A program made the translations under genes and the position numbers. Shown here piece by piece: positions 30,073-35,308 of a stretch of DNA of 64,000 nucleotides; positions within the stretch are counted from its first letter, which is position 1, and every line of letters begins with the position of its first letter. The stretch lies in contig OY843592.1 in assembly GCA_963692865.2 (NCBI GenBank), positions 3,520,001-3,584,000 on the forward strand, read 5' to 3'. The DNA is from a bacterium (GTDB taxonomy: Bacteria; UBA8248). The notes under the pieces are model-generated. The model worked only from the letters and a program-made list of their open reading frames with translations, had not been told where the DNA came from and made no database searches.

Positions 30073-30171
30073 GAAAAATGAAAATAATTAAATTTTTCGC
30101 CGCTTCGGACGGGAAATAGTCCTATTTGGAGATTGTTGAAAAAGTCCACCTCGGTCGTAATTGGCCACTAC

Positions 30172-30338
30172 CGTCATTCCGGCGAAAGCCGGAATCCATT
30201 TTCACCCGCCGATGGAACCGGGCACCGCCGTCATTCCCTCCGCACGGATACCGCATTCAGGCGTTGCGCAACAACGACAGCGTGGCCACTCCGCCCGGTG
30301 AAAAGTCAAAATGGATTCCGGCTTTCGCCGGAATGACG
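30172..30338. repeat. CGTC-type palindromic repeat pair
   Basis: Perfect 31-bp inverted repeat CGTCATTCCGGCGAAAGCCGGAATCCATTTT (30172-30202 / 30308-30338); each arm is itself a hairpin. Confidence 0.9.
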
Positions 30339-30409
30339 AACGAAAACCAAATTCGTCGTGGGTACCGAGAAGCCAGTTCCGACCGCAGAGGGAGGAACCG
30401 CCACCTACC

Positions 30410-30437
30410 GTAGGGACAGGTCGCAACCTGTCCCTAC
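30410..30437. repeat. GTAG-type REP hairpin
   Basis: GTAGGGACAGGT-CGCA-ACCTGTCCCTAC, perfect 12-bp stem. Confidence 0.85.
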
Positions 30438-30497
30438 AACAAACGTAAACCCTCCCGCATTGGACTTTTTCAACAACCCCATTTTGCCGAGAGCCCC

Positions 30498-31172
30498 CTA
30501 CCTCTCGGATTCGGGCCTGCCGCCGCGCCCGAAGCGGCGTGCGAGTTCCGCAAAGACCCGCCCCGGCGGCACGCCGCGCGCGGCCATCCCCACCAGGGTG
30601 TGGAACCACAAGTCGGCCACCTCGTTCGTTACCGCTTCGGGGCCCTCCTCGCGCATCGCCCTGACGACCTCGGCGGCTTCCTCGTCTATCTTCTCCAGCA
30701 CCCGCTCTTCACCCCTGGCGAACAGGCGCGCCACGTAGCTCGAATCCGTATCCCCCGCCCCTTTCCTCTCCAGGATCAGGCGATACACCGATTCGAGCAG
30801 GTTCTGGTCGAAATCGAACGCCGTATCGCCCCCTTCACCCCCGGACGCCGGTATTTCGGTGAAGAAACAAGACATGCGGTTCGTGTGGCAGGCCGGCCCG
30901 TCGGGCCTTACGATGAACACCAGGGCGTCGGAGTCGCAATCGAGCCTCGCCGACACCAGCCTGAGATAATTCCCCGAAGTCTCGCCCTTGTGCCAAAGCT
31001 CTTTCCGGGAGCGGGACCAGAAGTGGACGGTTCCTTTCTCCAGCGTCAAGCGGAGCGATTCTTCGTTCACCCAGGCCAGGGTGAGCACCTCGCCCGTACC
31101 GGCGTCCTGACAAATCGCAGGGGCCAGACCCTGCTCGTTCCACTTGACCTCGGGGATTTCCAACTCGCTCAC
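30498..31172 (-). CDS. hisIE: Bifunctional phosphoribosyl-AMP cyclohydrolase/phosphoribosyl-ATP diphosphatase
   Basis: [43 protein letters not shown] overlap with hisF. Confidence 0.95.
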
Positions 31173-31939
31173 AGTCTCACCTCCACGCCGCGCCCGCGCA
31201 GATACGTTTTCACCTCCTCGACCGAGTAATCGCCGAAGTGGAAGATCGAGGCGGCCAGAACGGCGTCGGCGCAGCCTTCCTCCAGACCCTCGTAAAGATG
31301 CTCCAGGTTCCCCACGCCGCCCGAGGCGATGACGGGCACGCTCACCCGCTCGGCTATCGTGCGCGTGAGCGCGAGGTCGTAGCCGTCCTTCGTGCCGTCC
31401 CTGTCCATGCTGGTGAGGAGAATCTCGCCCGCGCCCAGCGCGCAAGCCTCCTCCGCCCAGGCCACGGCGTCCCGGCCGGTGGGGCGCGAGCCACCGTGCG
31501 TGAACGCCTGCCAGCGAGGCGCATCCGCATCGTCCGGGACGCGCTTGGCGTCTACGGCGCACACGATGGTGGAGCTTCCGTAGCGCTCCGCCGATCGCTT
31601 GAGGACGCCCGGGTCCCTGAGCGCCGCGCTGTTGATGCTCACCTTGTCCGCGCCCGCCCTCAGCAGGTCGCGCACATCTTCCTCCTCGCGAACGCCGCCG
31701 CCCACCGTGAGGGGAACGAACACGCGCTCCGCGGTGCGGCGCACCATGTCGAGCAGGGTGCCGCGCTTTTCCTTGGAAGCCGTGATGTCGAGAAAGCAGA
31801 TTTCATCCGCCCCCATCTCGTCGTAATGCGCGGCGCACTCCACGGGGTCGCCCGCGTCGCGCAAGCCTTCAAAATTCACGCCCTTCACCACGCGGCCCTC
31901 TTTCACGTCGAGACAGGGAATGATTCTCTTCGCTAGCAA
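31169..31939 (-). CDS. hisF: Imidazole glycerol phosphate synthase cyclase subunit
   Basis: [32 protein letters not shown]. Confidence 0.98.
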
Positions 31940-32658
31940 GAGAGCATCTCCATCGCCTTTGGAAAATCCATGGTCCCCTCATACAGCGCGCGCCCCACGA
32001 CGGCGCCGATGACGCCCTTCTCCTCCAGGGGAATGAGTTTTTCCACGTCCTCGAGCCTGCTCACACCGCCCGCGGCGATGACGGGCAGACCGCAGGCTTC
32101 CGCAAGCGCGACGGTTGGAGCGGGGTCGAAACCCTCCAGCGTGCCGTCGCGGCGTATGTCGGTGAAGATGATTCCCGCGAGAGGCAGATGGGCGAAGCGG
32201 TTCGCCAGCGACTCGGGCGATACCGAGTCCCCCTCCTCCCAGCCGGAGATTCTGACTTCCCCGTCCTTGGCGTCTATTCCTAAAAGAATTTTTCCGGGAT
32301 TTCTCCGGGCGGCGGATTCGAGAAATTCCGGGTTCCTGAGCGCGCTCGTGCCGAGGATGACGAAGCTCGCCCCCGCATCGAGCACGGCCGCGAGAGACGC
32401 TTCCGTGCGAACGCCGCCGCCGAACTCCACGGGAACATCCACGACCTCCGCCACTTGCTTGAGGACGTCCACGTGGGCGGGCGCGCCGTCAAAGGCGCCG
32501 TCGAGATCGATGAGGTGAAGCCGCTTCGCGCCCTGCTCCACCCAGCGAAGCGCCCAAACCACCGGGTCGTCGCCGTAGACGATCTCGCGCCCTCTCCGGC
32601 CCTGGATGAGCCTCACGCATTTGCCGCCCTTGAGATCGACCGCCGGAATGAGAAGCAA
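31933..32658 (-). CDS. hisA: ProFAR isomerase
   Basis: [36 protein letters not shown]; start codon uncertain (TTG 32658 or 32688). Confidence 0.95.
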
Positions 32659-32805
32659 ACCGCCACCCCCGAGATGAGATTCCCGCAACTCTTGCGCCTC
32701 TCATTAAACCCAAACGGGCCATATTGCAAACGCTCGTGAGAATTTGTTGCGGAAAAGGGGGAACGGGGCGCCCGCAGCAGCGCGCCGGGGGGGGGGATTT
32801 CCTAG

Positions 32806-33004
32806 GGGGTTGTTGAATATGTCCACAGAGCAGGGAGGGAATCCCGACCATCGAATTGTTCGCCGTAGGGACAGGCCTCCGTGCCTGTCCTGACGAAGGA
32901 CGACCACAGAGGGTGAGATAACCACGGAGGGCAGGACAACCACGGAGGGTTGTCCCTACAAAACCTCTGTTTACAAGGCCCTATGCTGACTTTTCAACAA
33001 CCCC
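32806..33004. mobile_element. MITE-like cassette B with TAG/CTAGG flanking duplication
   Basis: CTAG|GGGGTTGTTGAATATGTC ... GACTTTTCAACAACCCC|TAG; encloses a GTAG REP doublet. Confidence 0.75.
32865..32959. repeat. Inverted GTAG REP doublet with internal 3 x 18-bp tandem repeat
   Basis: GTAGGGACAGGCCTCCGTGCCTGTCC (32865-32890) and GGACAACCACGGAGGGTTGTCCCTAC (32934-32959); 18-mers at 32897, 32915, 32933. Confidence 0.85.
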
Positions 33005-33672: not shown

Positions 33673-33687
33673 ACCACTCTCCCTGAT

Positions 33688-34024
33688 GAGGTTGTTGAAA
33701 GGCCCCCGATTTCGTGATTCCACGAATGGAGCAGACCAGGGAGGGATGAAACTTTACCCCGCCCTTGCAGAGCGACAACCAGCCACTCCCTCCTTGAGAG
33801 GGAGTCAGTGAACTGAGGGCGTAAGCCCGAAAGCGAACTGGTGGGGGGTATAATTCGGAATAGAGATAAACGCATTCTACCCCCACCGATTCAGCCTTCG
33901 CAAATACCGCTCGGCTTCATCGTCGGGTTTCCCCCTCGGGGAGCCCGACCCTCAAGGGGGGAGTGAACTTCAAAAGCGTTCGCACAACCCAAAATCGCTT
34001 CCCGGGAACTTTTTCAACAACTCC
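33688..34024. mobile_element. MITE-like cassette C
   Basis: GAGGTTGTTGAAAGGCCCC ... GGGAACTTTTTCAACAACTCC. Confidence 0.65.
33784..33965. repeat. Nested palindromic element
   Basis: Outer arms CACTCCCTCCTTGAG / CTCAAGGGGGGAGTG (1 mismatch), inner arms GGTGGGGGGTA / TACCCCCACC, plus small side hairpins. Confidence 0.8.
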
Positions 34025-34051
34025 AGAATGACGGGCCTCCAGAAAGCTGTC

Positions 34052-34654
34052 TCATAAAACGCCCTTGGTGCTGGGCACGCTCTCATCCCTCGGATCGAGC
34101 GCGACGCCCGCGCGCAGCGCCCGCGCGAAGCCCTTGAACACGGCTTCGACCATGTGGTGGCTGTTGTCCCCGTAGCAGACCTCGACGTGGAGGTCGACGC
34201 CCGCGTGGGTGGCCACCGACCAGAAGAACTCGCGCACGAGCGCGGTGTCGAACTCGCCGATTCGGGCTTCGGGGAACGCGGCGCGGAAGACGAGGTTCCC
34301 CCTGCCGCCGAAATCCGCCGCCACGTGGACGAGCGCGTCCATCATGGGCAGGCGCACGTCGGCGTAACGGGTGATGCCCGCCCGGTCGCCGAGCGCCTTC
34401 GCCAGCGTCCGGCCCAGGATTATTCCTATGTCCTCCACCGTGTGGTGGCCGTCGACGTCCAAATCCCCCTTGCCGCGGACGGTCAAATCCACCAACCCGT
34501 GGCGGGCGATCTGGGCGAGCATGTGGTCGAAAAAACCGATTCCCGTGGCGATTTCCGCCTCGCCCGCGCCGTCGAGGTTGACCGCGACGGAAAAATCGGT
34601 TTCCTTCGTCTTTCGGCTCACGCGCGCTTTTCTCTGCCTGGCCCTCGAAGCCAC
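34052..34654 (-). CDS. hisB: Imidazoleglycerol-phosphate dehydratase
   Basis: [42 protein letters not shown]. Confidence 0.97.
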
Positions 34655-34797
34655 TTTCCCTCTCCCGGCGAAATAAAACTTCCGTGAACACGCCGCCTTT
34701 CGGCAGCCCGATTATGCTTGATCCGGGCCCGCCCCGCCAGCGTCCCCTCAGGGAATTGTTGAAAAAGTCCCCGAAGCGGTGGGGGTGCGATGTTTTT

Positions 34798-34925
34798 GTG
34801 GGGGCGGACCGATGTGTCCGCCCGAACGGTCCGAAAGAACGAGGGCGGTGTGTAGGGGCCGCATACATGCGGCCCATGACGGGCGGCGAAAAAAGGCCGG
34901 GACGCATATATGCGTCCCCTACACA
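34798..34925. repeat. GTAG-type REPs: one single copy and one inverted doublet
   Basis: GTGGGGGCGGACCGATGTGTCCGCCC (34798-34823); GTAGGGGCCGCATACATGCGGCCC (34852-34875) with GGGACGCATATATGCGTCCCCTAC (34899-34922). Confidence 0.85.
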
Positions 34926-35015
34926 TCCCGCTCGCCGTGAACCCTCTCTCCCCGGTCGGGTCGAACCCTCATTCCTCAATCGGGTTCAACCCCCGCAAAC
35001 CGCCAACGCCTCTCT

Positions 35016-35131
35016 CCTCACCCTGAGTAGCCGCCGAAGGCGGCGTACCGAAGGGTGTGGGAAGTCGAACGCCTCGCGCCGGGCGAGAGGGCATCCTTCG
35101 ATACGCGGCTCCGCCGCTACTCAGGATGAGG
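35016..35131. repeat. CTCAYCCTGAG...CGAAGG palindromic repeat pair
   Basis: CCTCACCCTGAGTAGCCGCCGAAGGCGGCGTACCGAAGGGTG and inverted CATCCTTCGATACGCGGCTCCGCCGCTACTCAGGATGAGG. Confidence 0.85.
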
Positions 35132-35185
35132 CGGATAAGGCTTTTTCAACAGCCCCGATGAGGAAGGAATCGACCGACCGAGGAG

Positions 35186-35308
35186 GACTTTTTCTACAAG
35201 CCCGTCAAGGGGGGGTAGGGGGGGGGTTCGTTTTCAAGGCAGGGGGAGGATGAGCGAGGCGGGTTTTTCAACAGCCCCTGTCAGGGGGGCTTTTCTTCAA
35301 CAGCCCCC
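35186..35308. repeat. Extra same-orientation copies of the cassette right end
   Basis: GACTTTTTCTACAAGCCC (~35186), GTTTTTCAACAGCCCC (35263-35278), CTTTTCTTCAACAGCCCCC (35290-35308). Confidence 0.7.

Follow-up and report, generated by a model that had tools for sequence, protein, structure and literature searches.

The histidine operon and its four inserts

A 64-kb stretch of bacterial DNA (contig OY843592.1 of assembly GCA_963692865.2, positions 3,520,001 to 3,584,000), referred to here as the window, contains a histidine (his) operon on the minus strand, in which four spacers are occupied by non-coding inserts, designated A to D. The genome containing the window, G000, has a size of 4.15 Mb in 8 contigs and a G+C content of 61%. 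Taken together, the comparisons described below suggest that A to D are very probably miniature inverted-repeat transposable elements (MITEs) with the ends of an insertion sequence (IS) of the IS1182 family, moved by the transposase of that IS and carrying palindromes of other repeat systems.

Genes were identified from open reading frames (ORFs) and, for hisD, hisB, hisH, hisA, hisF and hisIE, by a Pfam search of the window; the operon is interrupted in its spacers only. Features in window coordinates, including repetitive extragenic palindromic (REP) sequences and genes resembling those for REP-associated tyrosine transposases (RAYTs), are:

30129..30480, no strand: cassette A, putative 352-bp MITE with ends GAGATTGTTGAAAAAGTC and GACTTTTTCAACAACCCC, between mutS2 and the hisIE stop codon
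30172..30338, no strand: CGTC-tagged palindrome dimer in A, CGTCATTCCGGCGAAAGCCGGAATCC plus inverted partner, forming a distinct repeat unit of about 170 bp
30410..30437, no strand: GTAGGGACAGG-type REP hairpin in A, of the class also flanking the RAYT-like gene G000:C1:17592-18014
30498-31172, minus strand: hisIE
31169-31939, minus strand: hisF
31933-32688, minus strand: hisA
32806..33004, no strand: cassette B, putative 199-bp MITE between hisA and hisH, with two GTAGGGACA-type REPs inside
33004-33672, minus strand: hisH
33688..34024, no strand: cassette C, putative 337-bp MITE between hisH and hisB, of a long-hairpin subfamily with CACTCCCYCCTTGAG
34052-34654, minus strand: hisB
34752..35308, no strand: composite D between hisB and hisD, its outer pair extending from a GGAA-variant left end to a degenerate right end at 35291-35308
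34752..35156, no strand: 405-bp inner pair of D, mosaic in structure, with a GGGCGGACC REP, a GTAGGGG.CGCA REP pair and a CTCAYCCTGAG long hairpin
34899..34918, minus (his-coding) strand: predicted terminator-like REP hairpin plus T run in D, from a consensus scan only
35186-35203 and 35261-35278, minus strand: two extra right-end units, with half a poly-G/poly-C palindrome (35209-35226) between them
35310-36600 (start approximate), minus strand: hisD, Pfam Histidinol_dh with 457.9 bits, stop codon 35310-35312

A position check on the window reproduced what the first-pass annotation had described, namely four inserts (D beginning at 34751/2) with common ends GGGGYTGTTGAAAAA…TTTTTCAACARCCCC, unrelated interiors and several palindrome types. 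The spacers occupied are mutS2–hisIE (A), hisA–hisH (B), hisH–hisB (C) and hisB–hisD (D); past D, three additional right-end units were found, reaching 35308. The distance from the insert end to the neighbouring stop codon is 17 nt for A, 27 nt for C and 1 nt for the outer end of D. B and the hisH stop codon have one base in common, which is the last of the right end of B and the first of the stop; the left end of C is found 15 nt before the start codon of hisH, immediately beyond the ribosome-binding site.

The core TGTTGAAAAA of the ends, with at most one mismatch, occurs 14 times in the window, compared to 1.56 expected, a number reached in none of 100 shuffles. Scanning with an 18-nt motif and up to three mismatches yielded ten units, all within 30129-35278 and none in the remainder of the 64 kb, in agreement with the earlier statement that such cassettes are absent elsewhere in the window; 35291-35308 is an 11th, more degenerate end unit. 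No BLAST match between any two of the four inserts was obtained at E <= 1e-5, so that, at this threshold, the four interiors are unrelated to one another.

The predicted fold of A is one long hairpin with its ends paired (z = -12.5; all folds were calculated on the transcribed strand and compared with shuffles), and its flanking 5-mers ATTTG and ATTTT are identical at 4 of 5 positions. CGTCATTCC is present at 30172, 30229 and 30330, and copies of the CGTC dimer, 167-182 bp long with 90-92% identity, occur elsewhere in G000 and in relatives. GTAGGGACA hairpins are located at 30410-30437 in A and at 32865 and 32959 in B, which has TAG repeated at both junctions and a fold z of -5.0. C contains CACTCCCYCCTTGAG at 33784 and 33965 (z = -3.9) and has a full-length relative at G000:C1:1220374-1220707 (99% coverage, 85% identity). 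Composite D is flanked by CTCAG and ATCAG, identical at 4 of 5 positions (z = -7.2). Palindromes of its inner pair are GGGCGGACC at 34802-34823, the GTAGGGG.CGCA pair at 34852-34922 and CTCAYCCTGAG at 35017 and 35130; the best partner of this inner pair elsewhere covers only 54% of it, and the part 34989-35156 recurs in many places with 90-95% identity. The right-end units at 35186-35278 are taken to be the remains of elements that were stacked or truncated.

The end motif in the genome and its IS1182-family partner

The ends define a large repeat family. The 18-nt end, with up to three mismatches, was found 1,161 times in G000, against about 26 times in an order-2 Markov control, and adjacent units 100-600 bp apart formed 289 inward and 33 outward pairs; the genome scan suggested in the first-pass annotation thus gave a motif that is both enriched and paired. 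When pairing was made tolerant of nesting (n = 1,122 units), 371 pairs with a median of 275 bp, amounting to 2.7% of the genome, were obtained and 380 units stayed unpaired. The paired elements are small, present in many copies and palindromic in their interiors, and they contain no transposase gene, as judged from size and composition. Their conserved end measures 19 bp, and the end logo shows neither a GTAG nor a CGTC head. The units are clustered, with 431 empty 5-kb bins compared to 204 expected and 9 bins with at least 8 units compared to 0.07 expected. Many such clusters exist, and the his operon, one of the densest, is not a unique location. Four 15-nt end strings had no occurrence in the literature searched.

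A partner IS with the same ends is present in the genome. All inward pairs 600-12,000 bp apart were screened for matching 5-bp flanks, and two intact copies of an IS of 1,514 bp were found outside the window (G000:C1:1499149-1500662 and C1:1724374-1725887), which possess perfect 19-bp ends GGGGCTGTTGAAAAACCCC, 5-bp duplications (TTGAG and CTCAA, respectively) and no internal end units. Including 30-bp flanks, the copies are identical at 1,566 of 1,574 positions. Their single ORF of 480 aa scored 345.5 bits with the NCBIfam model NF033551 "IS1182 family transposase" (cut-off 270) and was above cut-off for DUF772 (PF05598), DDE_Tnp_1 (PF01609) and DDE_Tnp_1_6 (PF13751); the IS5, IS4 and ISNCY models all scored below their cut-offs. 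In the ISfinder scheme, IS1182-family elements are about 1.3-1.95 kb in size; the 1,514-bp IS falls within this range and has terminal inverted repeats. For comparison, the entry on ISPse1 in PMC3281130 gives 1,653 bp, inverted repeats of 16/16 and direct repeats of 4.

The ends of the MITEs and the length of their duplications match those of this IS, and two MITE ends retain 47-55 bp of its right end at 89% identity. Homologues in alphaproteobacterial records, with about 60% identity, share these ends; a copy on a Sinorhizobium fredii plasmid, annotated as "IS1182 family transposase", differs by one end substitution (GAAGAA for GAAAAA) and has the 5-bp duplication ACCCG. The previously noted resemblance of the ends to IS5/IS1182-type termini is therefore substantiated by an intact IS1182-family IS, and the statement that no transposase is present is correct for the window and incorrect for the genome. 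Degenerate remains of a second, more distant IS1182-like transposase, with 49-58% identity and in-frame stops, were noticed at G000:C1:414049-414837 and C2:17145-17456.

Motif and transposase are distributed together. Exact copies of the 15-nt end number 413 in G000, which is the highest value, and 31-338 in 16 of 22 genomes of the same genus; they are absent from the other six, and 18 genomes outside the genus have 0-2 copies. The transposase was found in 13 of the 22 relatives, and none of the six genomes free of the motif was among them. A tree based on five his genes places the motif-bearing genomes together in one clade of the genus.

Target duplications of 5 bp are exact in 67 and have one mismatch in another 33 of the 371 pairs, compared to 6.6 and 11, respectively, in a control with flanks of different elements; pairs with at most two mismatches at both ends gave 56 exact duplications of 248. 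The target rebuilt from the 67 exact cases is C-rich(6) / T[AT]N[AT][AC] / G-rich(6), i.e., a hairpin that retains both arms and has its 5-nt loop duplicated. Insertions are also common in the loop of a palindrome AAACGCGAC...GTCGCGTTT, the second type of target. Three tandem junctions with a 4-6-nt spacer occur in G000, and nested copies as well as elements with two right ends were seen among related loci. A separate palindromic family of about 110 bp with poly-C/poly-G arms, CCCCCCTACCCCCCCTTGTCAGGGGGG … inverted partner, is represented at 35204-35226 and in many places of G000 (e.g., C1:381480-381600); the loops of its hairpins are the commonest landing sites of the MITEs, and 59 of 65 core motifs are situated at most 300 bp from a MITE end.

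From these data the following mechanism can be proposed. The DDE transposase of the 1,514-bp IS would mobilise, in trans, transposase-less elements with the 19-bp ends and would insert them into hairpin loops, mostly of the type C-run / 5 nt / G-run, with duplication of the 5-nt loop. Since an element begins with GGGG and ends with CCCC, this type of hairpin is rebuilt at both junctions. Old copies would thereby become landing places for new ones, at their borders or in their interiors, in line with the observed clusters and nested copies and with the occupation of all four his spacers. A target which is made by the element itself would drive stacking and nesting at 35157-35308 and elsewhere and would be a simple explanation for the clustering of MITEs; it is also the likely reason why about 1,100 ends in a 4-Mb genome could stem from one IS1182-family element. 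Whatever DNA is enclosed by two inward-facing ends would be mobilised, be it REP palindromes, REP doublets forming hairpins (REPINs), CGTC dimers or long hairpins, so that such palindromes would be amplified partly as passengers. At a fixed site, interiors would be expected to turn over with time, and the outer ends and flanks to remain.

Empty and filled sites in related genomes

The his operons of 20 relatives of the same genus were compared with that of G000. Baseline gaps at A, B, C and D are about 419, 100-116, 30-45 and about 95 bp, versus 783, 318, 382 and 657 bp in G000. The A gap is empty in 11 relatives, B in 7, C in 13 (with gaps of 30-59 bp) and D in 9, and the junctions are precise to the base; for example, site D reads ...CCCC TCAG GATGCGC when empty and …CCCCTCAG[GGAAYTGTTG…CAACAGCCCC](C)TCAGGATGCGC when filled. 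The precise empty alleles looked for on the basis of the first-pass annotation thus exist at all four gaps. Nine of the 20 relatives have none of these inserts in the his operon, five of them being members of the motif-bearing clade.

The same sites carry different cargo in different genomes. Eight genomes have an insert at site C, always at the same base, and the interiors are of four unrelated kinds: a homologous element is present in G014, G018 and G020, and unrelated interiors were found in G003, in G011/G012 and in G021. Six genomes are filled at site D; the comparison covered all of them except G011, which was set aside on account of its 2.5-kb insert, and the five interiors turned out to be essentially unrelated. 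All six genomes have in common the rare GGAA variant of the left end; across the genome, 6-7% of ends have A at the two variant positions. The variant GGGTTKGTTG and identical flanks are common to the sisters G018 and G021, the interiors of which have no similarity. Shared end variants and flanks around unrelated interiors indicate that cargo changes between persisting ends, and the fillings of one site do not look like independent arrivals.

As a route for this turnover, we favour insertion of a further copy into the junction hairpin, next door to or nested in the resident element, and a subsequent deletion with direct copies of the ends as its borders. The tandem junctions, the nested copies and the elements with two right ends can be regarded as intermediates. 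Alternatively, transposition with replacement of a stem-loop, as reported for IS1272, might operate. It is conceivable, if doubtful, that the end pairs serve as long-lived "sockets", the outer ends of which persist while cargo is swapped by IS1272-like replacement of the resident MITE or by next-door insertion and collapse.

Independent insertions into a strong hot spot, possibly after excision and with no exchange in place, would also yield different cargo at the same site. The structural preference for targets is strong, the empty his sites all having a C-run, 5 nt and G, and at C the filled genomes belong to three sub-clades, in between which are four empty ones. If each arrival were independent, however, canonical ends would be expected, and this does not agree with the rare GGAA variant in the six genomes at D, nor with GGGTTKGTTG and identical flanks in both G018 and G021; repeated arrival therefore appears rather unlikely.

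The 2.5-kb insert in the D gap of G011 was considered as an autonomous element of the family and was rejected, since what is nested there among the MITEs is an unrelated IS4-like transposase with ends of its own. This IS4-like element (hisB–hisD gap, G011:C1:568800-577000) has an ORF of 485 aa and its own inverted ends. A+T-rich inserts of about 540 and 770 bp, without IS1182-type ends, are present in the mutS2–hisIE gap of G012 and the hisA–hisH gap of G009, respectively.

A selected function of the inserts as regulatory RNA structures of the his operon, either attenuators or stabilisers, was also considered. All four fold far better than shuffles (z = -3.9 to -12.5), a terminator-like REP with a T run is present, and stop codons and ribosome-binding sites are spared. 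Strong folding, however, is given by inverted repeats alone, the same elements occur hundreds of times in the genome, and their cargo differs between species at the same site; no Rfam family reached the gathering score within 27000-38000 of the window. With 9 of 20 relatives lacking the inserts, no evidence for a selected function was seen, and this explanation is very improbable.

Palindromic cargo, remaining alternatives and known systems

Clustering of 318 elements at 80% mutual coverage resulted in families of 24, 23, 16, 14, 11, 10 and so on, with 144 singletons. Cores consist of GTAGGGG.CGCAT-class REPINs, CTCAYCCTGAG hairpins, CACTCCCYCCTTGAG hairpins or CGTC dimers, and subterminal modules recombine between families. 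The shuffled cargo which the first-pass annotation had anticipated is evident from the singletons and from the different interiors at the same sites. A subfamily with a REPIN core comprises 10 copies of 180-193 bp with a median identity of 98%, at different sites and in both orientations; exact duplications around 8 of these 10 near-identical copies demonstrate that the whole unit of end, REPIN and end has moved recently. Paired elements, with 2.7% of the genome, contain 52% of the 324 GTAGGGGNCGCAT sites, and 88% of these sites have an end unit at a distance of at most 300 bp, a zone that amounts to 10.6% of the genome; for CGTCATTCC, the respective values are 37% and 72%.

A six-frame search of G000 with Pfam Y1_Tnp gave no match at E <= 0.001. 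By tblastn with a RAYT-like ORF of a relative, three RAYT-like genes were detected in G000, all of them missed by the Y1_Tnp search and flanked by GTAG REP classes:

G000:C1:17592-18014, RAYT-like gene, flanking REP class GTAGGGACAGG
G000:C1:861656-861958, RAYT-like gene, flanking REP class GTAGGGGCGGACC
G000:C1:1531574-1532062, RAYT-like gene, flanking REP class GTAGGGGCCGCAT

In the first of these genes a REP was noticed inside the reading frame. With GTAG-headed inverted pairs and a RAYT-like gene flanked by the same repeat, the cargo has the characteristics of REPINs. Complete dependence of the GTAG REPs on MITEs was considered and dropped, since three RAYT-like genes exist in G000. The earlier suggestion that pairs of IS ends carry REPs made by several enzymes is in line with three RAYT-like genes having their own REP classes and with REPIN-bearing MITEs which moved as units.

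The other suggestion made at that time was that the ends themselves spread as REP-like units. Here the 20-nt GGGG-loop-CCCC unit would be distributed by a tyrosine (HUH/RAYT-type) enzyme, and the cassettes would be mosaics similar to bacterial interspersed mosaic elements (BIMEs). In favour of this, the unit is able to form a small hairpin, no partner was assigned to 380 of 1,122 units, and RAYT-like genes are present in the genome. Subterminal sequence of a paired element is present next to the end in 215 of the 380 unpaired units, however (median match 59 nt; 24 in an outer-flank control), and therefore these units are mostly truncated halves and not free-standing ones. In addition, the pairs are flanked by 5-bp duplications of the DDE type, a DDE IS has exactly these ends, and the RAYT-like genes are flanked by GTAG REPs and not by the end unit, which has no GTAG or CGTC head. 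Spread of the ends on their own is thus hardly credible, even less so than a regulatory function.

Ends of the Tn3 family also start with GGGG and make 5-bp duplications, but are about 38 bp long; an origin as Tn3-derived miniature elements (TIMEs) is the least probable explanation of all and was rejected, since no Tn3 transposase (PF01526) was found in G000, 2-3% of which is unassembled, with control genomes positive, and since the conserved end has 19 bp and is identical to that of the IS1182-family IS.

Several observations weigh against an origin of the cassettes from the IS1182-family IS, or limit its reach. The whole case consists of sequence comparison, and no transposition was observed. 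Exact duplications are present in only 18% of the pairs, many elements being old, nested or truncated, and in the window they are weak for B (TAG only) and C (2/5); the pairing rule behind the 371 pairs may join ends from different elements. Three motif-bearing genomes, G003, G005 and G021, gave no transposase match at E <= 1e-20; the fragmentation of their assemblies into 190-470 contigs makes this negative uninformative. The relatives are metagenome-assembled genomes, and a chimeric join is possible for the 3.9-kb contig of G021. The his-gene tree is based on 3.4 kb and a quick search, with G021 contributing 37% of the columns. G010 has neither motif nor transposase, yet it is placed inside the motif-bearing clade, on a long branch; either its repeats were purged or its his operon has a different history. 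G010 also contains almost no GTAG or CGTC repeats and is deviant in composition. Finally, motif-free genomes contain numerous cargo-type repeats, namely 102 GTAG REPs and 107 CGTC repeats in G007 and 133 GTAG REPs in G001, from which it follows that carriage by MITEs is not their only means of spread.

The first-pass annotation regarded the cassettes as candidates for an undescribed system; they are very probably a MITE family of a known IS family, and both MITEs of IS1182 type and hairpin targeting are in print (PMC3852290, PMC11578231, PMC4923244, PMC5678879). IS1182-derived MITEs were described as MITEPye1 from Paracoccus yeei (PMC11578231) and as ISMac2-associated MITEs from Methanosarcina acetivorans (PMC3852290). 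According to the passages dealing with these elements, they are small, non-coding and intergenic like those described here, with IS1182-like ends (18-26 bp), short direct repeats and long stem-loops, but they form single homogeneous families with few copies (1-3 per chromosome, or 7-14) and repeats of 4 bp. In the present genome, by contrast, there are about 370 paired elements and 1,100 ends, 5-bp duplications and many subfamilies, with 144 of 318 elements as singletons.

Targeting of hairpins that relies on structure more than on sequence was reported for IS1272 and TnSha1, members of the IS1182 family in staphylococci (PMC4923244, PMC5678879). As far as these accounts describe it, likenesses to the present elements include hairpin targets, repeated independent hits on the same hairpin, and mobilisation of cargo that has an IS end on one side and an end-like sequence on the other. 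With IS1272 the target hairpin is deleted or replaced and no duplication is made, whereas here the arms are kept and the 5-nt loop is duplicated.

The cargo belongs to the classes known as REPIN/RAYT (Bertels and Rainey 2011) and GTAG/CGTC palindromes (Di Nocera et al. 2013), which the cassette ends do not resemble, since they have no GTAG or CGTC tag and are associated with a DDE transposase and target duplications. According to PMC3733652, CGTC dimers are head-to-head, as they are here, CGTC repeats have no dedicated transposase, and some GTAG dimers of Anabaena variabilis are found inside longer palindromes. What is notable in comparison with known IS1182 MITEs is the scale, the hairpin targeting with loop duplication, the REPIN and CGTC passengers and the turnover of cargo at fixed sites. 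Mosaics arising from mobilisation of any DNA between compatible ends are known from the TIMEs of Tn3 and the mobile insertion cassettes (MICs) of IS231. The elements described here are similar in this mosaic mobilisation and differ in the transposase family, a Tn3 transposase not having been found in G000.

We know of no dedicated enzyme for CGTC palindromes. REPINs and CGTC dimers ride in MITEs of DDE type, which offers a testable route for the spread of CGTC repeats, a question left open in PMC3733652. The 20 related genomes represent a natural record of cargo change between conserved ends at orthologous sites of an essential operon. Should end pairs indeed act as sockets, a DDE transposase would traffic REPINs, which are normally moved by tyrosine transposases, together with CGTC palindromes; CGTC repeats would gain a concrete route of spread, and one IS would drive most of the small-repeat dynamics of the lineage. 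Elements of this type also break assemblies and confound the annotation of repeats in metagenome-assembled genomes.

Apart from the inserts, a non-coding stretch of about 419 bp between mutS2 and hisIE (29718-30128) was noticed, which is of near-constant length in 11 relatives and has no match to an Rfam family. It contains a near-consensus promoter-like site, TTGACA-17-TATATT, on the minus strand (30072-30044), and may represent a leader or a small RNA upstream of mutS2.

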